A DNA stretch of 14,725 nucleotides from a bacterium (GTDB lineage: Bacteria > Zhuqueibacterota > Zhuqueibacteria > Oceanimicrobiales > Oceanimicrobiaceae): assembly GCA_046757025.1 (NCBI GenBank), contig JBHHXN010000133.1:1-14725 (forward strand), written 5' to 3'. Of the stretch, positions 1,593 to 14,725 are shown one piece after another (positions within the stretch are counted from its first letter, which is position 1; each line of letters begins with the position of its first letter). A program made the translations under genes and the position numbers. Below the pieces are notes generated by a model that was not told the origin of the DNA, made no database searches, and saw only the letters and a list, made by a program, of their open reading frames with translations.

Positions 1593-2960
1593 TTATTTGA
1601 CGTACACAGTTTTGATATTCACGAATTCTTTGATGCCGTAATGCGCTAACTCCCGACCGTAACCGCTTTCTTTAATACCACCAAACGGTAAGCGGGGATC
1701 CGATTTGACAAAAGCATTGACAAAACAGCAGCCGGCTTCCAGCGCTTCAGCGGCAATGCGCTCGCCTTTTTCCACATCCTGCGTAAACACCGCCGCACCC
1801 AAACCGAAGATGGTATCGTTGGCTACCACAATAGCTTCGGTTTCGTCTTCTACTGTGATGATGGCGGCTACGGGGCCGAACAGCTCTTCGTCATAAGCCG
1901 GCATGCCTTTTTGAACGCGGGTGAGCACCGTCGGCGGATAGTACGCACCCCGACCCTCGGGGATTTTTCCACCGAGCAGGCAGGTCGCCCCCTTTGCAAT
2001 ACTTTTTTGCACCTGCTTGTGCAGCTCGTCACGCAAATCGAGGCGGGCTTGCGGGCCCATGGTGGTTTGTTCTGAGAACGGATCGCCCATCTTCACCGAT
2101 TGCATGGTCTGCACCAGAAGCTGCTCGAAACGCGCCAGTTGGGAACGCACCACCACAAACCGTTTAGCGGCAATGCAGCTTTGACCGGCGTTGATGAGGC
2201 GGCTGGTGGCACAGGCGGACACTGCTGCTTCCAAATCAGCGTCCTCCAAAATCACGTACGGATCGCTGCCGCCCAATTCGAGCACGGTTTTTTTGAGCAT
2301 TTCACCGGCTTTGCCGGCCACGGCCTTGCCGGCGGGCGTGCTGCCGGTGAGGGTGACGGCTTTTACCATGGGGTTTTCGATCACCGCCGCTACCTGACGA
2401 CTGCCGATGAGCAGCGTTCGGAACGTGTCCGGGGGGAAGCCCGCCTTATGAAACACTTCTTCGATGGCCAGGGCGCAGCCAGGCACATTGGAGGCGTGTT
2501 TTAACAGGCCCACATTCCCGGCCATGAGCGCCGGTGCGGCAAACCGAAAAACCTGCCAGAACGGAAAATTCCAGGGCATGACCGCCAGCACCACGCCCAG
2601 CGGTTGAAAAGTCACGAAGCTTCTGGAAGCATCGGTGGCGATGACTTCTTCCTGCAAAAAAATCTCAGCGTTTTCCGCATAATAATTGCACACCCAGGCA
2701 CACTTTTCGCTTTCCGCCCGCCCATCGCGGAGGGGCTTGCCCATTTCCAGTGCCATGAGTTTGGCGTACTCATCGACGTTGTCACGCAGAATCACCGCCG
2801 CTTTTTTCATCAGGCGTGCGCGTTCAGTAAAAGCGGTATGGCGCCAGGAAAGAAAGGCCGTATATGCGGCCTGGATTATCGACTGGACTTCTTCTGCCGA
2901 CATTTCAGGGTAGGTTTTAATGGTTTCCCCGGTTGCCGGATTGATGGCGGTTATGCTCAT
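1593..2960 (-). CDS. gabD: NAD(P)+-dependent succinate-semialdehyde dehydrogenase (GabD1/Sad/SsaD-type ALDH), 455 aa
   Basis: ALDH motifs MPWNFPFWQVFRF, LKHAS, LTGS, LELGGSDP, NAGQSC (catalytic Cys), EELFGP, PFGGIKESGYGRE. RBS GGGAGG lies inside the upstream gene, with ATGA overlap at 2957-2960. Confidence 0.92.
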   Translation of the reverse strand: MSITAINPATGETIKTYPEMSAEEVQSIIQAAYTAFLSWRHTAFTERARLMKKAAVILRDNVDEYAKLMALEMGKPLRDGRAESEKCAWVCNYYAENAEIFLQEEVIATDASRSFVTFQPLGVVLAVMPWNFPFWQVFRFAAPALMAGNVGLLKHASNVPGCALAIEEVFHKAGFPPDTFRTLLIGSRQVAAVIENPMVKAVTLTGSTPAGKAVAGKAGEMLKKTVLELGGSDPYVILEDADLEAAVSACATSRLINAGQSCIAAKRFVVVRSQLARFEQLLVQTMQSVKMGDPFSEQTTMGPQARLDLRDELHKQVQKSIAKGATCLLGGKIPEGRGAYYPPTVLTRVQKGMPAYDEELFGPVAAIITVEDETEAIVVANDTIFGLGAAVFTQDVEKGERIAAEALEAGCCFVNAFVKSDPRLPFGGIKESGYGRELAHYGIKEFVNIKTVYVK

Positions 2961-4609
2961 GCGTTATCCTCCCAATATTGATTCAGTTTTTCCACCAGCG
3001 CGTTGTTGACGCTGGCGTCCACGGGAATTTCGACCAGATTCAACTCCTTTGACGTGATGGCCGTTTGCAAGTTTTTTTTCAGCTCCGAGAGGTTTTGCGG
3101 CCGGTAGGCCGTGATGCCAAAACTCTCCGCGTACAATTTGAAGTCCGGATTGCTGAGGCGTGTGCTCACCGAGGTGCCTCTGGACATGCTCTGTTTCCAG
3201 CTTATCAGGCCGTAATCGTTGTCGTTAAAAACCACGGTGGTGAAGCGGACGCCCAGTCGTTTGGCGGTTTCTAATTCCTGGGAATTCATCAGGAAACCGC
3301 CATCGCCCATGACCGCCACCACCTGACGCTGCGGCTGCAGCAGTGCCGCGGCGATGGCGCCCGGCAGCGCAATGCCCATGCTCGCTAGTCCGTTGCTGAT
3401 GATGCAGCCGTTGGGTGTGCAGGTGGGAAAATTGCGCGCAATCCACATCTTATGACTGCCGACGTCGCTGATGAGCAATCCGCTGTCGTCCAATACTTGA
3501 CGGATGATATTGAGGGAGCCGGGAATGGTGAACGGCTGGCCCTCTTTGAGATCATAGCTGGCGATGTCGTTCAGGATTTGCTCACGAATGGGTTGATACC
3601 ATTCCGCATCAAATTCCAGGTCCGCATCCATCAGCCGCTGATTGAGCTCCCACAACGCTCCGGAAATATCCCCCACCACTTCCACGTCGGGAAGGTAATT
3701 GCTGTAAACTTCACTTGGAGAGAAATCGATATGAACGATTTGTTTTTCACCTGCGGCGTTCCATTTTTCAGGCGGATATTCCGCGATGTCGTAGCCCACA
3801 GTGAGGATGAGGTCGGCATTTTCCACAGCAGCCATCACAAAATCCTTGAACCCGAGTCCGATGCTCAACAGAGATTGTGGGGACTTATCCGAAATGGCTC
3901 CCTTCCCCATGAAAGTCGAGACCACAGGAATCTGGTGTTTCTCGGCAAGCTGCGTCAGGTGTTTGCTGGCCAGCTTTCGGATGGCGCCGTTGCCGGCGAT
4001 GATCAGCGGCCGCCGGGCGTGCACGAGCAAGTGAATGGTGCGGTTGATGGCCTTGTAGTCCGGACTGGGACGTCGCACGCGTTTTGGCTCGATGGGCGCC
4101 TGTTTCGATTGCACGTTCAGTTTGGCGAGGTCCTCGGACAGTTCGATGTGTGTGGCGCCGGGTTTTTCATATTCGGCGATTTTAAAAGCTTTTCTAGTCA
4201 CTTCACAAACAATTTCAGGAGAAGAGATCGCGGCATTCCATTTGGTGATTGGTCGAAATACGTTGACGATGTCCAGGTATTGGTGGCTTTCGTGGTGTAA
4301 TCGTGTCAAGCCCCCCTGACCGGTGATGGCCACGATGGGCGCCTTGTCTAAATTAGCGTCTGCCACCCCGGTGATGAGGTTGGTCGCACCCGGTCCCAGC
4401 GTGGCCAGACAAACGCCGGCTTTGCCAGTGAGCCGGCCCCAGACATTGGCCGTGAACGCCGCGCCCGATTCATGCCGGCACGGAACGAACTCGATGGCGG
4501 AGTCTTGCAGCGAAAACAGCAGGTCTTCATTTTCTTCTCCCGGTACGCCAAAAATATAGCGAACCCCCTCGTTCTCCAGGCACTTAACGAATAAATCCGA
4601 GACTTTCAT
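2957..4609 (-). CDS. ThDP-dependent acetolactate-synthase-large-subunit-like enzyme, candidate 2-oxoglutarate decarboxylase (OgdA-like), 550 aa
   Basis: LENEGVRYIFGVPGEEN, RHESGAAF (catalytic Glu), TLGPGATNL.TGVADANLD, ESHQYLD, and ThDP motif GDGGFLMNSQELETA...FNDNDYGLI. Fold assignment is secure; the substrate is inferred from subfamily resemblance and gene context. Confidence 0.85.
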   Translation of the reverse strand: MKVSDLFVKCLENEGVRYIFGVPGEENEDLLFSLQDSAIEFVPCRHESGAAFTANVWGRLTGKAGVCLATLGPGATNLITGVADANLDKAPIVAITGQGGLTRLHHESHQYLDIVNVFRPITKWNAAISSPEIVCEVTRKAFKIAEYEKPGATHIELSEDLAKLNVQSKQAPIEPKRVRRPSPDYKAINRTIHLLVHARRPLIIAGNGAIRKLASKHLTQLAEKHQIPVVSTFMGKGAISDKSPQSLLSIGLGFKDFVMAAVENADLILTVGYDIAEYPPEKWNAAGEKQIVHIDFSPSEVYSNYLPDVEVVGDISGALWELNQRLMDADLEFDAEWYQPIREQILNDIASYDLKEGQPFTIPGSLNIIRQVLDDSGLLISDVGSHKMWIARNFPTCTPNGCIISNGLASMGIALPGAIAAALLQPQRQVVAVMGDGGFLMNSQELETAKRLGVRFTTVVFNDNDYGLISWKQSMSRGTSVSTRLSNPDFKLYAESFGITAYRPQNLSELKKNLQTAITSKELNLVEIPVDASVNNALVEKLNQYWEDNA

Positions 4610-4689
4610 TTTTATCTTTCAGTAAATTAAGCAATGCAATTTATAGTATTACATCTGAACTTTTGCATTTTTTTGCCAAGAAAAAAAAT

Positions 4690-4792
4690 CGAAAACCGGA
4701 AACCGAAATTCGTCGTCTATAGATTTTGAAATAGACAAGCCAACTCTGGAATTCCTTTTTACGAATTTCGCTTTTCGGTTTGCGGCTTTTCG
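4690..4792. repeat. Inverted array of heptamer-like units forming a long hairpin
   Basis: Left arm CGAAAAC-CGGAAAC-CGAAATT-CGT; right arm reverse complement CGAAAAG-CCGCAAAC-CGAAAAG-CGAAATT-CGT. Perfect 10-bp core at 4704-4713/4761-4770, plus inner stem GTCTAT (4715-4720)/ATAGAC (4731-4736). Confidence 0.65.
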
Positions 4793-4907
4793 CTGCATTA
4801 GGTAAAACAACTCTTTGAAGAAAACACCTGGCATTTATATTGTATTCCTTTTATTGTGCTGAAGGCTGCATTATCATGCCGTTAGCGTTTGAACGAAAAC
4901 GATTCTA

Positions 4908-4997
4908 TCTTCCCGAAGGCGGCCTGGCCGAGGGTGAATTCCTGCCTGGCTCGGCGGGGCTTTTCTTAGCTTTGTCGAAGGCACGCCTTCGCGAAGA
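4908..4997. other. GC-rich nested stem-loop element just downstream of the methyltransferase gene
   Basis: TCTTCCCGAAGGCG (4908-4921) pairs 13/14 with CGCCTTCGCGAAGA (4984-4997). Inner stem GCCGAG (4927-4932)/CTCGGC (4950-4955). Competing local hairpin CGAAGG-cacg-CCTTCG (4976-4991). Confidence 0.55.
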
Positions 4998-5041
4998 GGT
5001 TTTTAAATCGTGCATTTCTCGAGTTTTCGTTCAATCTTTCA

Positions 5042-6214
5042 TTAATCATGCGTCTGATATTTCTTTTTCTTGCTGCCGGCGTACAATTCGTATTTCTGAA
5101 ACCGGCATTCCAAACCTCCGTTAAAAACCGTCACTTTTTTGGAAGGACGCAGCCCGACATGTTTGAGGGCTTCTTTATTGGCGCTCAAAATCCAGGCTTC
5201 GAATCCGTTGAAACGCTGTTTCAAACAGTCGCCGATCATCTGGTAAAAGGCGCCGATATCGGCTGATTTCATGCGTGTGCCGTACGGTGGATTCATCAGC
5301 AGCATGCCCGCCGGCTCCGGGGCTTCGAGCGCTTCAAATGGCTTCAGCAACAGCTCAATTTTGCTCTGCATTTGCGCCCGCTTGATATTTTCTCTTGCGC
5401 TTTCGATGGCTCGTGTGGATTTATCCGAACCCAGGATAAGCCCTTCGAATGGCGCGGCTTGCTCCGCTGCGGTCTGCTTGATTTTCTTCCACAAATCTGC
5501 ATCATAATCTGGCCATTTTTGAAAGCCAAATTTTTTTCTGTGAAGGCCCGGAGGAACCTGGCACGCCATAGCGGCGGCCTCTATGAGCAGGGTGCCGGAG
5601 CCGCACATGGGATCGATAAAACAGCTTTTTCGGTCCCAGCCGGTCAGCAAGATCAAACCCGCGGCCAGGGCTTCGTTCAAAGGCGCTGCGGTTTTATCCA
5701 GACGGTAACCTCGTTTGTGCAGCGCTTCGCCGGAGCTGTCCAGAGAAAGCGTGCAAACATCTTTGAAAATGTGCACGTTGATGCGTAAGTCGGGATTTTC
5801 CACATCCACTGAGGGACGTCTGCCGGTTCGATCTCGGAACTGATCCACGATGGCGTCCTTGGCTTTTAAAGCCACATACTTTGAATGCTTGAAGTATTGC
5901 GACCCCACCACGCTGTCCACCGCAAACGTGGTCTGCAAATCCAGATACCGGCGCCAGTCGATTTCCCTAAAACTTTTGTAAAAATGTTCGATGCGTCGGG
6001 TGCGGAATTCGTGGATGGGTTTCAGCACCCGCAAAGCGGTCCGCAGCCACAAATTCGCACGATACAGCAGGGTCTGATCCCCGTAAAAAGTCACTGCACG
6101 GTTTTTTAATTCGATGTCACCTACGCCCAACCGTTTTATTTCATCAGCTAGAATCGGCTCCAGCCCGTAAAGGGTTTTCGCGATGAGTTTGAATTTTGGT
6201 TTGTTTTGCTGCAC
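5042..6214 (-). CDS. rlmL: THUMP-domain class I SAM-dependent RNA methyltransferase (stand-alone RlmL/YpsC type, probable 23S rRNA m2G2445), 390 aa
   Basis: Motifs KTLYGLE.IL, YRANLWLRTALRVL, KDAIVDQFR...RPSVD..NPD, SLDSSGEALHKRGYR, APLNEALAAG, DPMCGSGT (SAM binding) and NPPYG. The GTG start lacks a clear RBS, so the exact start is uncertain. Confidence 0.88.
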   Translation of the reverse strand: MQQNKPKFKLIAKTLYGLEPILADEIKRLGVGDIELKNRAVTFYGDQTLLYRANLWLRTALRVLKPIHEFRTRRIEHFYKSFREIDWRRYLDLQTTFAVDSVVGSQYFKHSKYVALKAKDAIVDQFRDRTGRRPSVDVENPDLRINVHIFKDVCTLSLDSSGEALHKRGYRLDKTAAPLNEALAAGLILLTGWDRKSCFIDPMCGSGTLLIEAAAMACQVPPGLHRKKFGFQKWPDYDADLWKKIKQTAAEQAAPFEGLILGSDKSTRAIESARENIKRAQMQSKIELLLKPFEALEAPEPAGMLLMNPPYGTRMKSADIGAFYQMIGDCLKQRFNGFEAWILSANKEALKHVGLRPSKKVTVFNGGLECRFQKYELYAGSKKKKYQTHD

Positions 6215-6330
6215 AGTTTTGGGCCAGTCATTTTATATATTAAAGTCAGATTCTGGCTTCTTCTATTTTATTCGTAGTATAATGACTCGTTGAAAATCTG
6301 TTTTGAATGATGATTAAAGAGTTATCATGG

Positions 6331-6402
6331 TTTCCCGAATTTTTTTCAAGACTCACCATGAAAAAATACGCTTCAGCCTGAGTCCGAAAGAAGTTCGGGA
6401 AA
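6331..6402. repeat. Imperfect ~24-bp inverted repeat with 23-nt spacer
   Basis: Left TTTCCCGAATTTTTTTCAAGACTCA (6331-6355); right arm (6379-6402) reverse complement TTTCCCGAACTTCTTTCGGACTCA. Confidence 0.7.
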
Positions 6403-6733: not shown

Positions 6734-7284
6734 TATTATTAGATTCACCTCCCACAAAAACATTTCTGGTGGGTCAACTCTTTTTGCTAAACTATTCTAA
6801 CACATAAATGACTCGATCAAAAAAATGACCGAGTTGCAAATCATTTGTAGCAGTCATATCAAGTTCAACATCTTCCAGCGGATGTGATGAGTTTTATCCG
6901 TATTTCATCTTTTCCAATACAAACTGGGTCCAATTGCGGCACCATGGAAACTGATTTTGGATTTTCGAGCATCATCGAGTTGATACAAAAACACTTTTCG
7001 CTCCTCTGTGCAAAGGTCCCGCAAATCATCATACCAAATCAATGCATGGTTTTAAGCGATCACGCTTTTTACATACATTTGAATCGAACAATTTGCAATT
7101 TTAAGAGATAACAATGTCTTTTTTTGATACAACGTTGTCTCAATATTATCCTGCTGGGAAATAGACATTCAGAAGGTGTAATTTCTAATTCTATCTGCCC
7201 TGAGCATGGACTTTCGATTTAAATGGGACAATTTATTTTTCCTTAAGTACATGGTTTTTGGACATCTTTGTTGGAGGAGGCATC

Positions 7285-7371
7285 ATGTTTACGAAAATCC
7301 AAAATTGGCTGAGTATTAATAGCTTTTTAATCAGCAGCATTGTTTTTTTTCTGGCGCTACCAGCCCAGGCA
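7285..7371 (+). other. Sec/SPI signal peptide (29 aa), cleavage AQA|Q
   Basis: MFTKIQNWLSINSFLISSIVFFLALPAQA|QDDEF has a basic N-region, a hydrophobic core, an A-x-A box and a +1 Gln. Confidence 0.8.
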
Positions 7372-7392
7372 CAGGATGATGAATTTACCATC

Positions 7393-9290
7393 GAGCCCGC
7401 CAGCCACATTGGCGGCAACACCACCTGCAGCGCAGTACAGGGCAATTACGCTTTTGTGGGCCAGGGCGGATTCCTGAGTGTGGTGGATATTTCCGGCGCC
7501 ATCTTCAGGCAGGTGGCGTAACTTGATCTGCCCGCCAAGTCTGGCGATATCCAGATCGTAGGCAACTACGCCTACCTCGCCACCGACGGCATCAGCATCG
7601 TGGATATTTCCGATCCCCTCAATCCCACGCTGGTGGATTCTCTGCAGCTTGGCACCGGTGCGGCCGCGCAAATCTTTGTTTCGGGTAATTATGCCTATCT
7701 CGCCGCTGCGGGAAATGGACTGTTGGTGATCGACATCTCCAACCCGGCCGCGCCAAATCTTATGGGCACATTTAGCAACGGCAATCGCTTTGGGGATGTT
7801 TTTGTAGCCGGCAATCACGCTTACGTGTTAGATCAATCGTTTAATAAAATGCGGGTGGTGGACATCAGCAACGCCGCTAATCCCACCGAAGTTGCAGAAA
7901 TCGACATCGTGGGCCTTAAATCCATTTATGTGCAAGGGAATTACGCTTACATTGCCGCCGCTCCAATTCCTACCGCGGGTATGCACATCGTGGACATCTC
8001 CAATCCACAAAACCCGACCAAAGTGAGTTTTTTTGAAACCGCTGAAGTAAATGGCCAGAATAAAACATTTCATTTGGCGCGCAAAGTGGCCGTGGACGGC
8101 AGTTACGCTTACATCGGAACCCGTAGCGACTCCTGGCTGTTTATCGTGGATGTTTCCAATCCGGCCAATCCAGTCGAAACCGGCAAAGTCGAGCTGACTT
8201 CCACCTGGGGAACCGTCGTGTCCCTGCAAATCGAATATCCCTCCGCGTATCTGGCGATGAATTTTGAGGTGGATGGATTTCGGGAAATCGACATTTCTAA
8301 CCGGGCGGCGCCGGCCGAGGCCAATCAATACGAAAGTCCGTACGACGTGTTCTGGGTGCAGAGCGCTTCCGACTATCTCTATGTGGCTTCCCTGGCGAAA
8401 CTGTGGATTTACGGCATGTCCGATCCAACGCAGCCCGCTTTTGTCAATTCCTACAACCAATGGGGCGAGATGCTGCGCATCTTCCTAAATGACACTACAC
8501 TCTTCGGTCTTAATTCCGTGGATATGCGCATCCTCGACGTCACGGATGCCTACAACGTAAGTCAGCTTTCGTCTTATCAGCCGGCGGGCGGTCAGCCAGT
8601 GGAAGTGTTCGTTCTCGGTAGTTATGCTTACCTGCTCACAGAAGGCAACCCGGGCAAGCTGGAGATCGTGGATATCTCTGATCTGGCAAATCCCGTGAAA
8701 GCCGGTGACGCCAACTTACTGGGCATAGGACGAGACTTGCTGGTGACCGCTGGTAGTACCGTGGCCTACATCGCTTATTACGCCAGCGGCGCGGACAAAG
8801 GCTTCCAGATCGTGGATGTGTCCGACCCGGCGGCAGCCACGCTTCTTGGTTCGGCGCAAACTGTGGGCGTACCCATATCTATCTGGGTTGAAGGTGACTC
8901 CCTGTTTGTGGGCAGCAATACTGGCGAAGATCCCAATACGCTATGGCATCTTGAAGTGTTCGACATTTCAGATCCATCCAGTCCGACAAAAGTGACAGAA
9001 ATCAGCGATGCCGGCGAAATCTGGGATTTGGAAATGAGAAACGGTTCTATTTTTGCAGGCATTGCCGGCGGCAGCGTGTACGTGTTAGCATGGGACGTGG
9101 ACGCGGCGGGTACTTTGAGCATCCTTGCAATATGCCATTCCGATGACACCCGGCAAATCTCCACCACGCCAAATGGCAGCGCCAGTACGGGCTATGTGGC
9201 CACCACCGAAGGATTTGGCGAAGATAATTCCAACGGGGAAAAAGATATCAGCGGCGACGATGGCGTGGTCATTCAGACTTTCAAATTCCC
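7393..9290 (+). repeat. LVIVD repeat region, about 13-14 blades (probably two beta-propellers)
   Basis: Recurrent 'V.GNYAY.A....GL.IVDIS.P..P': VVDISG, IVDISDP, VIDISNP, VVDISNA, IVDISNP, IVDVSNP, EIDISNR, IYGMSDP, ILDVTDA, IVDISDL, IVDVSDP, VFDISDP, then 1-2 degenerate units. Confidence 0.9.
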
Positions 9291-10071
9291 CAAAGCCAAG
9301 CAGTTTGTGGCGCCAAAGCCGATGAACATCGAAGGCGATTTTAATCCAGGTCACTCTTGCATCACTGTACCCAGCGGCTTCGTGGCCTGTTCCTGTGGTT
9401 CAATCATCCCAATTGCTGCGATAGACAAGGCCCCCTTCTGTGAAAGCTATGGCTGGAATTTTTACGAATGGACCGGCTGCGCCAGCGGCAACAATAAAAA
9501 CACGCAGGTGCAATGCGAGGGCAACGGCCAATGTGAAGCCATTGCCGTGTGGCACATGCCGGTGCTGGGGCTGAGCACTGTTCCCAGTACGCGCAATCTC
9601 TGTGCCAGCGAAGTAAATGACGAGTACGATGCCCTGGATTTCAATCTTTGCGCCAGCGAACTGGACGATTGGAAAGTCTCGTCGTTGACGTTTCAGGCCT
9701 CCGGCGACGGCCGGGATCACGAAGAGATCAAAACCGTCAGACTTTACTGGGAATCCACTTTGCTCGGCGAACAGACCTATCCAGCAGATGACGGCAGCAT
9801 TACTTTTCAGTTTGGCGAAATTACCATTCAAAAGAACGATTGCGAAAGCTTTCTTCTAACTTATGAATTTGACAAGGAAAAGTTAGATTGTCCAATTTGC
9901 GAATTTCCCAATCTCGACGACTGCGACGAATCAAAAGATTTCAGCGTGACGGTGACCAGCGCCCAGGTGGTGGCCTCGCCGGTGAGCTACGCTAATGGTA
10001 AAGTCATCGGCGACGCAACCAGCGGGCCCATCAAGGTTGGCTGCATCCGCAACATCACCAAAGACCTTTTT

Positions 10072-13000
10072 TACAAGACCATCCAGGACGCCGTGGACGA
10101 TGCCAATACAGACGACATCATCGAGGTCTGCGCCGGCACTTACACTGAAAATGTCGATATCCATAAAGCTCTGACCCTGCGCTCCACCAAAGGCTACAAA
10201 GAGACCACCATTCAGGCGCTGCTTTCCACTGACCATGTTCTTCATTTGAAGAGTGACAAAATCACCATCGAAGGGTTTACCATAAAAAAAGCCTCTCTGG
10301 CCGCGGCCGGAATTTTTATTGGCGGCAGCACCATCAAAAACGGCACCATCGCCAACAATTTCATCACGGGGAATATGGTGGGCGTGCACATCAGAGACGG
10401 CGCCCGGTCGAATTTTATCGGCGAAAGCCTGGAGGGCAACGCGGCAAACCTCATTTCAGGAAATAGCGAAGGCGGCATTCTGATCGAAGGCGTCGGCAGC
10501 GATAGCAATATGGTGGCGGGCAATTTTATCGGCACCAAAATAGGCGGCAAGGAAAAGCTGCCCAATGCAAACGGCGTGATCATTAGCGACCAGGCAAAGT
10601 ACAACTTCATCGGCGTGGGTGAATTCGACTGGAAAAAAAATATCATCTCCGGTAACGAATTGTCCGGCGTGCGCATCGACGGTGTGGGCACGGACAAAAA
10701 CAAAGTGCTGGGGAACTACATCGGCACCGACATCGCAGGGGCGGCCGCGGTGGCAAATAAAGACGGCATCCGCATTTCCGGCGGCGCCCAAGCCGACACC
10801 GTAGGCGGCACCAAGGTGTCTGAACGTAACGTCATCTCAGGTAACTCCGAGTACGGCATTCTCATCGACGGCACGGGAACCAGCGGTCACCAGATCCGTG
10901 GCAACTTCATCGGCTTGAAAAGCAACGGCGCTGAAGCGTTGAAGAACGGCGTCGATGGCATCTGGTTGTCGGCAGACGGCGGCTCAAATGTCATCGGCGG
11001 TTCAAAATTGAATGTGCGCAACATCATCTCCGCCCACCCCAAAGCCGGCATCCGCATCGACGGCTCCCACAAAAATAAAATCCTGGGCAATTTCATCGGT
11101 ACCACTGAATCCGGCAAAGAGAAACTCCCCAACAAATGGGGCGTGTACATTCAGGAACAGGCCAAAGGCAGCCTCATCGGCGGCACGGGTACCTGGGAAG
11201 ACAACCTCATTTCCGGGAACCTCGAAAGCGGCGTCCACATCGAAGGGGCGGGTACCGACAGCACACTGGTGGCCGGCAACTACATTGGCATGAGCCATGC
11301 GGGCGCCCGGCTCGGCAACAAATTCGGAATTTACATTACCGACCAGGCGAAATTCACCAGCGTCGGCAACAAAAACACCATCTCCGGCAACGACTCAAGC
11401 GGCATCCTGATCGAAGGCGCCGGCACCGATCAGAACAAAGTGTGGGGGAATCTCATCGGTTTAAATTTCAGCGGTAAGAGTAGCATGGGGAATAGGATCG
11501 GGATTTTAATCCGCAGAGGGGCGACAAGAAATATCATCGGCGGTAATCTGGATGAGGAGCGCAACATCATATCCGGCAACTCCCATAACGGCATCTGCCT
11601 TGAAGGAGAAGGCACAGACAAAAATATGGTTTGGGGCAACTACATTGGCACGGACAAAGAGGGTCAGATCGATCTGGGCAACTTCACCGGCATTACTGTT
11701 CATGCCAGGGCTAAAGCCAATGTCATCGGCCTGAGCGCAAATAGCACCAGCAAAGGCAACTTAATCTCCGGCAACGTCTGGGGTATCGACATCGCCAATG
11801 CCGGCACCGACAGCACCCGAGTCGCGGGTAACCTCATCGGCACCATGAAGGACGGCGAAACCGCTCTGCCGAACTACAAAGGCATTCTCATTACCGAAGG
11901 CGCAAAATACACGATAATTGGAGGGGTGAGAGAGCAGGGCCGAAACACAATCGCGGGGAATAATGAAGAGGGTATCTATATCTCAGGAGATGGAACAATA
12001 AAAAACCAGGTCTGGGGAAATTTCATCGGTACCAATAAAAATAATTCCACGGTTATGGGTAATCAAAACGGTGTGATTATTTCCCATGGAGCACAGGAAA
12101 ATATCATCGGGGTAAACGATTTTGAAGGCCGAGGCAACGTCATTTCTGGCAACGACAGCAGCGGCGTTTTAATAGAAAACCAGGGCACGCTTTACAATCG
12201 TGTCAAAGGCAATCACATCGGAACGGATAAAAGCGGCCGCACACCGCTGCCCAAAATATGTACGGCGTGCGCATCAGAAAACAAGCCAACGAGAACATTG
12301 TCGGCAATGAAAAAGTGGAAGAGGCGCCGGAAGAACGCAACATTATCTCCGGCAACACCCGCGCCGGGGTTTTGATTGAAGACGCCCAGAAAAATCTGGT
12401 CGGAGGAAACTACATTGGTACCAACAAAGACGGCAGCGTTAAATTGCCCAACCAGGATGGAGTGGTCTTGCGCGGACGGGCACAATTCAATTTGATCGGC
12501 GTCCGAGAAGTCTCGTCGTTCAATTATTCCGGCAGCCGCAACCTCATTGCCGGCAATCGCGACGACGGCGTGGAGATCAGCGGTTTCGACACCGACCAAA
12601 ACTACGTCATGGGGAACTTTATCGGCACCAACGACAACCCGGATATCGACCTTTCCAACAGAGTGGGGGTCTTTATTCACAATGGGGCTTATGCCAATCA
12701 GATCGGCGGTACGACTTTTCGTGAAGACAACGTCATCTCTGGCCACCCGCACACCGGCGTGATTATTCAAGATGAAGGTACCACAAACAACCAGATTCGC
12801 GGCAACAAAATTGGCACTGACTGGAGCGGCAAGGGTAAAATTCCCAACCGCTGGGGTGTGTTGATCACCCAGAGTGCAAAATCGAATATTATCGAAAAAA
12901 ATATCATCTCTGGCAATGTGTTCTTCGGCGTCTTTCTCTCGGGGCGCGGCACTAACGACAATAAAATCTGGGGCAACATCGTTGGCAAAATCAGTACCTC

Positions 13001-13610
13001 GCTTTTGGACCTGGCCAACAAGCAGGGCATTTACATCCACGCCCTCGCCGATGGCAATATCATTGGCGGCGAAGGCGCCAAAGCCAACATCATCGCCGGC
13101 AACGACGAAAAAGGCGTGTGGCTGCACCAGGTACGGGACAATGTGGTGACCGGCAATTTTATCGGCACCGACCGCGCCGGCAATGAATTGGGAAACGACA
13201 TCGGCGTGTTCGTTCAAAACAGCGCCAAAAACACCGTTAGCAGCAACAAAATATGGTACAATTGTACCGCGGTAAAACTGGCCGGCTCCTGGCAAAATCA
13301 AATCCTCAACAACGACGAACACGAAAGCTGGTGCCTGTTCACGGGACTGCACGTGAGCAATTCCAGTCCGATGGTCATCGGCAACACCTTTCGCAATGGC
13401 GCAGGCGACGCCATCCTGAGCGAACAAGGTTCCAGCCCGGTCATCCAGAAAAACAATTTCATCAGCAGCGGCGGCTTTGCCATCAACAATCAGGATGCCG
13501 GCGTCACCCTTTCTGCCACCGGCAACTGGTTTGGCGACGCCTCGGGCCCCGGCGGCTCCGGTCCGGGATCCGGCGATGAGGTGAACGGTCAGGTGGATTT
13601 TGCCAACTGG
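10072..13610 (+). repeat. Right-handed parallel beta-helix region: NosD/CASH-like cap plus 15 repeats of about 55-70 aa
   Basis: Cap YKTIQDAVDDANTDDIIEVCAGTYTENVDIHKALTLRS. Counted 15 Nx-I-[SA]-[GA]-[NH] units, each followed by GIxI...GNxIG[TLMK]...NxxGxxI (10 before the frameshift, 5 after). Closes with ATGNWFGDASGP...VDFANW. Confidence 0.9.
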
Positions 13611-13949
13611 CGCGCCACAGCCGTTTCCCTGACCGTGGCGGCTGCAACAGACACCGCTTATTTAGGCAACGGTCAAAGCGATTCGGTGATGTGCTTCTTC
13701 CAGAACTGGCAAAATCTCAGCGACGTGCTCAACGTCACCGTAACCGATTCCCTGGGCTGGCTTTACGGCGCCACCGCCTACTCCCTCACTCTGCGCGACA
13801 GCCTGGGCGCCGATTCTACCGTTTCAGTAGCCGTGCCCGGCGACGCCAAAGTCGGCACCATCAACAAGATCAAAATCCGCGCGGTTTCTCAGTCCAACCC
13901 GGCGATTTCGGACGCGGATTCCTTTCTTGTCATGGTGTACAACCGCTTC

Positions 13950-14447
13950 CTGGCGCAGATGGAAATCTCGCCGGCGTAGGCTGTACTGCGTGCGGGCCAG
14001 ACGCAGCAGTTTAAGGTGCAGGGCTACGACTCACTCGGTAACGCCATGGAGGTGGACGCGGTGTGGAACGCCACCGGCGGCAACATCGACAGCACGGGAC
14101 TCTACACCGCCGGCAGCGCGCCCGGCAATTACGAAGTGACGGCCGAAGAACCCATCAGTCACATACAGGCAACGGCCGCCCTTAAAATCGAGCCCATGCT
14201 GGCGAGAATCGTGGTATCTCCGGATACGGCGGTGCTGGCCACTGAGAAGTCGCAGCAATTCACCGCCCAGGGTTTTGACTCGCTTGGCAACACAGTGCAG
14301 GTGTTCACTCTCTGGCAGGCCACCGGCGGGGAAATCGATGCGACCGGACTTTACACCGCCGGCCTAAATCTGGGATTTTACAAGGTCTTTGCGGAAGATT
14401 CCCGCAACCATTTGCTGAGCTCGGCAGTGGTGCACATCAAAACCGTC
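13950..14447 (+). repeat. Two tandem Ig-like (Big_2-like) repeats, 83-aa period
   Basis: LAQMEISPA*AVLRAGQTQQFKVQGYDSLGN..V.A.WNATGGNIDSTGLYTAG aligns with LARIVVSPDTAVLATEKSQQFTAQGFDSLGN..V...WQATGGEIDATGLYTAG; offset 249 nt. Confidence 0.85.
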
Positions 14448-14480
14448 ACCGAGGTGGTCCAACAGGAGAGTCCGGTTTTA

Positions 14481-14725
14481 CCTGAAGATTTTGTGCTGAT
14501 GCAGAATTACCCCAATCCCTTCAATCCGTCCACCACCATCGAATTCGGGGTTAAAAAAGCCAGCCACGTCAAACTCACCATCTACGACCTGCGCGGCCGT
14601 AAAGTCACCACGCTGCTGGATAAATTTCATCAGCCGGGATTTTACAAGGTAACATTTGAGGCCAGTGAGCTGGCCACGGGTGTCTATTTTTACCAGATTC
14701 AGATGGGACAATTTCAGGCGGTGAA
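14481..14725 (+). other. T9SS type A C-terminal sorting domain of the giant protein (last few residues beyond the window)
   Basis: PEDFVLMQNYPNPFNPSTTIEFGVKKASHVKLTIYDLRGRKVTTLLDKFHQPGFYKVTFEASELATGVYFYQIQMGQFQAV..., in frame with 13980. Missing from the ORF track, presumably because no stop is reached within the window. Confidence 0.95.

Follow-up and report, generated by a model that had tools for sequence, protein, structure and literature searches.

A broken gene for a putative type IX-secreted surface protein, probably a young pseudogene, in a hydrothermal-vent bacterium

The stretch of bacterial DNA analysed here, referred to as the window, is 14,725 nucleotides long and represents the entire contig C133 of genome G000 (5.96 Mb, 374 contigs, 47% GC, 94.8% complete). 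Four of its open reading frames (ORFs), distributed from position 7285 to the contig end, form one single gene that two stop codons and a frameshift have interrupted. This gene is probably a young pseudogene of a surface protein secreted via a type IX secretion system (T9SS), decaying under relaxed selection. Judged from assembled contigs, the breaks are real alleles and not assembly errors. The protein itself would be an uncharacterised T9SS-type cargo, as judged from its domains.

Organization of the broken gene

The gene measures 7463 nt including its stop codon and counts 2,486 codons once two extra bases are removed, in agreement with the size of about 2480 amino acids (aa) proposed for the joined fragments in a preliminary description of the window. 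The frame of ATG 7285 contains a single stop, TAA 7519-7521, until position 12373. The coding signal jumps at the AAAA run 12253-12256 into the frame of ATG 12258, which hits TAG 13977-13979 and is thereafter open up to the contig end. Under a dicodon model, the four pieces of the gene score +0.11 to +0.24 per codon and the tail of the first frame beyond 12255 scores -0.45, a non-coding value. The 3' end is located outside the window on contig C166, which shares a 35-nt overlap and displays the stop codon ending at C166:57. The following features can be recognized.

7273..7280, + strand: Shine-Dalgarno-like motif GGAGGAGG, seen in the sequence 4 nt upstream of ATG 7285
7285..7371, + strand: predicted Sec signal peptide, aa 1-29, with an A-x-A end (by eye; similar leaders start the homologs)
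7372..9200 (approximate bounds), + strand: LVIVD repeats, likely beta-propeller(s) (PF08309, E 2e-71; PF09826, E 2e-7)
9280..10070, + strand: Cys-rich segment and predicted beta-sandwich domain, without Pfam family
10071..13600 (approximate bounds), + strand: predicted right-handed parallel beta-helix repeats with NxIGT / NxISGN motifs (PF13229, PF05048; AlphaFold2; Foldseek)
13959..14430, + strand: two Ig-like repeats resembling Big_2, which passes the Pfam cut-off in homolog P0012 but not here
14508..14725, + strand: T9SS type A C-terminal sorting domain (CTD; PF18962, TIGR04183), with the last 7 codons and the stop on C166

The N-terminus was judged by eye as basic, then hydrophobic, with the A-x-A pattern. 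The CTD exceeds the cut-offs of both models (PF18962: E 1e-11, 45 bits vs 27; TIGR04183: 31.6 vs 23), and the two Ig-like repeats are 71% identical in a self blastn comparison (13999-14114 vs 14248-14363). Two segments were modelled well by AlphaFold2, with predicted local distance difference test (pLDDT) values of 84 and 89; the latter model, covering 12258-13976, displays a beta-helix followed by an Ig-like domain. For the middle domain, Foldseek returned only weak beta-sandwich and beta-helix matches and an Atlas search gave a best score of 0.80, which is a lead only. Sequence searches of the PDB returned no match.

As written, the gene would yield a peptide of only 78 aa, and the 1591-aa and 573-aa ORFs possess neither signal peptide nor CTD, as previously described. 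Since T9SS cargo requires both a signal peptide and a CTD, according to PMC5445135, the pieces would remain unexported. Nothing resembling a Shine-Dalgarno motif can be seen ahead of GTG7600, ATG12258 or GTG14016, and a promoter and terminator scan produced matches to consensus only. Except for CTDs, the genome contains no paralog of the gene; gene conversion from a paralog was considered and is unsupported for this reason. In the public annotation, the fragments are listed as separate proteins (P0123, P0132, P0134 and P0003).

Homologs

Seven full-length homologs carrying the whole domain set were picked among the 120 homologs listed (P0004, P0005, P0006, P0008, P0012, P0018 and P0066). All seven are single chains of 2115-2482 aa, 31-41% identical to the window protein, matching it in domain order and length, and colinear over all three break sites. 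The possibility, raised beforehand, that orthologs might be encoded as separate genes with their own signal peptides is not borne out by these full-length sequences. Both stop columns are occupied by a residue in 7/7 homologs, with Tyr at the 7519 column in four of them; at the frameshift column, six align across the site with Asn and the seventh is gapped. Each break therefore falls inside a repeat that continues beyond it, as had been noticed from the sequence.

Five matches of partial architecture were also compared with the window gene. Single-module relatives exist as well, namely LVIVD + CTD proteins of 770-850 aa and beta-helix + CTD proteins; the LVIVD + CTD proteins inspected have their own leader and their own CTD. 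The gene is matched in 57 of 61 genomes and, among the matches listed outside G000, one contains an internal stop. The 60 relatives do not include a genome of the same genus. A metagenome scan produced one distant locus. Above 44% identity to the 573-aa ORF, the 120 matches listed in a search of 315-1003 aa proteins contained only the window's own fragment.

Alleles in four metagenome runs

The comparison sequences are assembled contigs from four hydrothermal-vent metagenome runs (X1-X4). Alleles were read from these contigs, which lose minority alleles and leave distant sites unphased. The variants are listed below.

7519..7521, + strand: lesion 1, TAA in the window, X1, X2 and X3; TAT (Tyr) in X4
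12253..12256, + strand: lesion 2, AAAA in the window, X1, X2 and X3; two bases fewer, in frame, in X4
13977..13979, + strand: lesion 3, TAG in the window and X3; CAG (Gln) in X1, X2 and X4
11935..11937, + strand: fourth lesion, TAG in X3; CAG in the window
7343..7350, + strand: T8 run, lengthened to T9 in X4, where 31 codons are then followed by a stop; a lesion private to X4, depth 5.52
9217..9217, + strand: -1 deletion in X4 only and the second lesion of that run, possibly erroneous (depth 4.05)
9298..9299, + strand: likely in-frame 24-nt deletion in the window, X1, X2 and X3 when compared with X4, flanked by 4-nt direct repeats
13325..13617, + strand: tract of six single nucleotide polymorphisms (SNPs) common to X2 and X3, likely a recombinational import (from contigs)

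TAA7519 and the +2 insertion are each found in 3/4 runs (X1, X2 and X3, depth 11.5-14.6), and TAG13977 in 1/4 runs (X3, depth 12.2). Lesions 1 and 3 are point mutations, and lesion 2 duplicates AA within a run of four. X4 is sense at all three of these sites, yet displays two frameshifts of its own. Lesion counts are nested, with two in X1 and X2, three in the window and four in X3, whose truncated product is P0003 (1446 aa). In the sampled population, the gene is inactivated by six alleles in total and carries two in-frame indels as well; the recent pseudogenisation of a single gene suggested in the preliminary description is supported by these data, and its count of only three lesions is too low. 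The remainder of the gene is mostly intact as had been stated, with the exception of the 24 nt missing in frame after 9298 in comparison to X4; homologs carry extra residues at this site, where the X4 contig has a depth of 4.05.

The alleles do not group the samples consistently. An in-frame 3-nt insertion at 7656 is confined to X2 and X3, which are also paired by the SNP tract, position 9417 pairs the window with X2, and position 13977 pairs it with X3. Among the window, X1, X2 and X3, the tract and the 13977 allele occur in each of their four possible combinations; recombination, recurrent mutation or a mixed-sample consensus is therefore needed. The contigs of X1, X2 and X4 all end at 10965-11016, and the window version of this segment is present in X1 and X2 on short pieces at depth 4.2 and 2.9, versus 8-15 alongside. 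It represents either an unresolved assembly bubble, the second branch of which was not seen, or a sequencing-error hotspot.

Divergence and timing of the loss

The gene contigs contain 31 substitutions (17 synonymous, 11 missense and 3 nonsense), with each change classed singly in the two codons that bear two changes and with eight X4 calls at a depth below 5. Changes are few altogether, and the missense ones stay below the neutral expectation. Between the window and X4, 13 synonymous and 8 missense changes were counted; under five mutation models, omega amounts to 0.19-0.34 and P under neutrality to 2e-4 to 0.012. The gene was therefore probably under purifying selection through most of the window-X4 divergence, and its loss would be recent. 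Because the lesions of the window and of X4 do not overlap, the contigs suggest that the loss happened separately in the two lineages.

The events could have unfolded as follows. The intact protein, of about 2,490 aa, would have crossed the inner membrane via Sec and the outer membrane via its CTD and SprA/PorV/PorU, and may have served as a glycan-binding or adhesive surface protein. The gene would have been functional for most of the divergence and then lost in both lineages. In the window lineage, TAA7519 and the +2 insertion would have come first, in either order, and TAG13977 and TAG11935 later, the alleles being shuffled by recombination or by mixed-sample consensus.

Stop codons, CTD genes and secretion machinery in G000

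TAA and TAG are true stops in G000. The 1863 long coding ORFs end with TAA (828), TGA (676) or TAG (311), 48 being open; release factor 1 (RF1) is intact, PylS has no match in the 94.8% complete genome and its tRNA list contains no suppressor with a CUA or UUA anticodon. A tRNA-Sec is present, along with in-frame TGA selenocysteine candidates on contigs C335, C16, C28 and C53, some of which we take to be DUF3179-like and deiodinase-like proteins. ARAGORN also reported a tRNA-Leu whose anticodon, AAG, is uncommon in bacteria.

The genome contains 185 CTD ORFs, of which 165 possess an internal 5' end; a crude screen for signal peptides is passed by 142. At least 11 of the 165, by eye and as a lower bound, are broken or remnants, including three besides the window gene with multiple hits. 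The breakage looks like ordinary cargo turnover, because about 11 in 165 CTD genes are broken and several of them more than once. The other broken CTD genes are located on contigs C92 (TAA and TAG), C309 (TAG and a frameshift), C52 (several breaks), C113, C47, C250, C138, C71 and C4; on C113, the gene upstream also appears to be broken. A break detector was calibrated in addition. At its lax setting, frameshifts were caught in 111/150 and 114/150 cases and stops in 66/150, with 3/150 false calls; the strict setting overlooked TAG13977. With this calibration, 46 of the 3762 gene models are flagged, a number that contains false positives, and only the window gene shows three events. By this one detector, breaks in CTD genes are not significantly enriched (4/165 vs 42/3577, P 0.14). 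An enrichment computed at P 9e-6 was rejected, as by-eye and automatic detection had been mixed.

SprA, 17 PorV-family genes and PorU were found over cut-offs and without internal stops. The loss of the cargo does not originate from the loss of SprA, PorV or PorU, because all three are present. GldM and GldN, recovered in 2/2 Bacteroidota controls, were not found in G000, G012 or the single-contig G041, where diverged forms could escape; GldK and GldL were not searched. From these sequences, the host T9SS would either be devoid of a recognisable motor/ring or possess very diverged components. Rhodothermus may have a similar T9SS state. Our literature search produced no paper on such a T9SS without GldM/GldN, none on T9SS in KSB1 or Calditrichota, and nothing on the LVIVD + beta-helix + Ig + CTD gene family or on a comparable case.

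Alternative explanations

Selection against a costly surface protein may account for the loss, and we consider such a parallel, selected loss as clearly less probable than decay under relaxed selection. Display of the protein would have turned harmful, for example through its use as a phage receptor, through grazing or through export cost, and a soft sweep of many independent knockouts would have followed recent purifying selection. Through recombination, each haplotype would collect two to four of these knockouts more quickly than missense changes accumulate. A number of observations fit this scenario and weigh against simple relaxation: six knockout alleles for 11 missense changes is a high number, the lesions of the two lineages do not overlap, all four tract/13977 combinations are present with 6/8 SNPs clustered within 292 bp (P 2.5e-5), and the gene is the sole one with three events among the 46 flagged models. 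Nonsense changes also account for 3/14 of the non-synonymous changes (P 0.013-0.033), although, without the two ascertained stops, this excess drops to P 0.36-0.47. Outside the SNP tract, the window clade is devoid of missense changes and shows 2 synonymous and 2 nonsense ones, an excess of the latter still at P 0.005-0.013 without TAG13977, this clade being a post hoc subset of three. Decay of the whole population is further weakened by the unphased state of the X4 lesions (depth 5.5 and 4.05), where an intact haplotype could exist, by the minority intact haplotype that any sample could contain, and by the origin of X1-X4 in one single study, two of these runs being a possible source of the window. 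Selected loss is itself opposed by the fact that the gene was chosen for its lesions, and the 4 second hits seen are within the 0.3-5.9 expected, a range that varies with indel rate and timing. At 7.5 kb, the gene is moreover among the largest mutational targets of the genome, multiple hits occur in other CTD genes too, and no selective agent has been identified.

Population on/off variation, consensus errors and recoding had all been put forward with the initial description. Reversible phase variation of the surface protein is improbable: none of the window lesions (two point mutations, one AA duplication) falls in a slippage-prone tract, and a stack of two to four lesions cannot revert often enough to be of use. 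Only the T8 to T9 change of X4, in the signal-peptide region, could be of this nature, and T runs are common in hydrophobic leaders; unseen alleles may also exist at 10965/11016, where the contigs of X1, X2 and X4 break and the window version has a low depth. Assembly or consensus errors in an intact gene are more improbable still. The window does differ from each run somewhere and may be a mosaic, T at 13928 is found in 0/3 covering runs, and TAG13977 is missing from both runs flagged as a possible source. Errors can nevertheless be rejected for TAA7519 and the frameshift, which recur at good depth in three separately assembled runs, and are unlikely for TAG13977, carried by a contig of X3, a run not flagged as a source; nor is the genome error-ridden, as judged from the few models flagged. 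Least credible of all are the two readings that would preserve a function. Full-length synthesis by read-through of TAA and TAG together with a programmed frameshift could invoke the recoding of TGA in G000 (tRNA-Sec and several in-frame TGA candidates); it is rejected on the stop usage, the intact RF1, the lack of PylS match and suppressor tRNA described above, and on the ordinary sense codons of sister haplotypes, and one mRNA would need three different recoding events. A functional split into separate cooperating genes, for which the stand-alone single-module relatives could be precedents, is equally hard to sustain, as the window pieces are devoid of leader, CTD or ribosome-binding motifs of their own and the break points differ among haplotypes.

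As a pseudogene, the window gene is ordinary; its modest value resides in a worked case of a gene dying in a wild population, followed in four samples. Should the excess of knockouts hold at the level of reads, strong negative selection on a surface protein would be indicated for a vent lineage, and the gene could serve to test the idea of adaptive loss in uncultured bacteria.

Neighbouring DNA

The upstream part of the window contains apparently intact neighbours.

1196-1585, + strand: apparently intact
1593-4609, - strand: apparently intact
5042-6214, - strand: apparently intact

An ExbD/TolR protein and an RlmL-like THUMP methyltransferase are among the window neighbours according to Pfam, and other neighbour ORFs are presumably aldehyde dehydrogenase-like and acetolactate synthase-like. 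At about 105-330 on the + strand, another CTD gene survives as an eroded remnant, whose CTD is interrupted by a frameshift and which lacks an open frame upstream; from its sequence, it is read as an older dead cargo gene. Intergenic repeats at about 700-950, 4625-4825, 4875-5045 and 6260-6400 have about 12, 20-60, 100-110 and 30 blastn matches in the genome, respectively; we take them to be similar to miniature inverted-repeat transposable elements (MITE) or repetitive extragenic palindromic (REP) sequences. The summed contig depth reaches 270-480 around 4420-5400, compared to about 13 elsewhere.

Comparison with known systems

The predicted protein shares with T9SS type A cargo (PF18962 / TIGR04183) a CTD with a KxxxK-like end strand and, as judged by eye, a putative N-terminal signal peptide, and its host genome shares SprA, the PorV family and PorU. 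It differs in that the gene is broken and that the host machine is not of the canonical Bacteroidota type or is very diverged. Within the LVIVD + beta-helix + Ig + CTD family, for which neither a functional name nor a solved relative was found, the members are intact and the window gene is broken. Phage tailspikes, the AlgE4/AlgG epimerases and GH87 have in common with the modelled protein a right-handed parallel beta-helix (Foldseek best E 1e-7). This likeness would be at the fold level only, with a TM-score by query of at most 0.38 and an identity of at most 15%, and no catalytic residues were identified.

Pseudogenes have been described in metagenome-assembled genomes of free-living chemolithotrophic communities, according to bioRxiv 10.1101/2025.04.10.648229. 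A close parallel to the decay described here is found in the young pseudogenes of Salmonella. According to Kuo and Ochman 2010 (PMC2916853), 346/378 pseudogenes carry one hit and 2/5 shared ones are of independent origin. Both cases have in common broken alleles almost identical to functional ones, stops, short indels and an inactivation that arose independently in sister lineages; the window haplotypes differ by carrying two to four hits alongside a very small number of missense changes, and by their setting in a free-living uncultured vent population.

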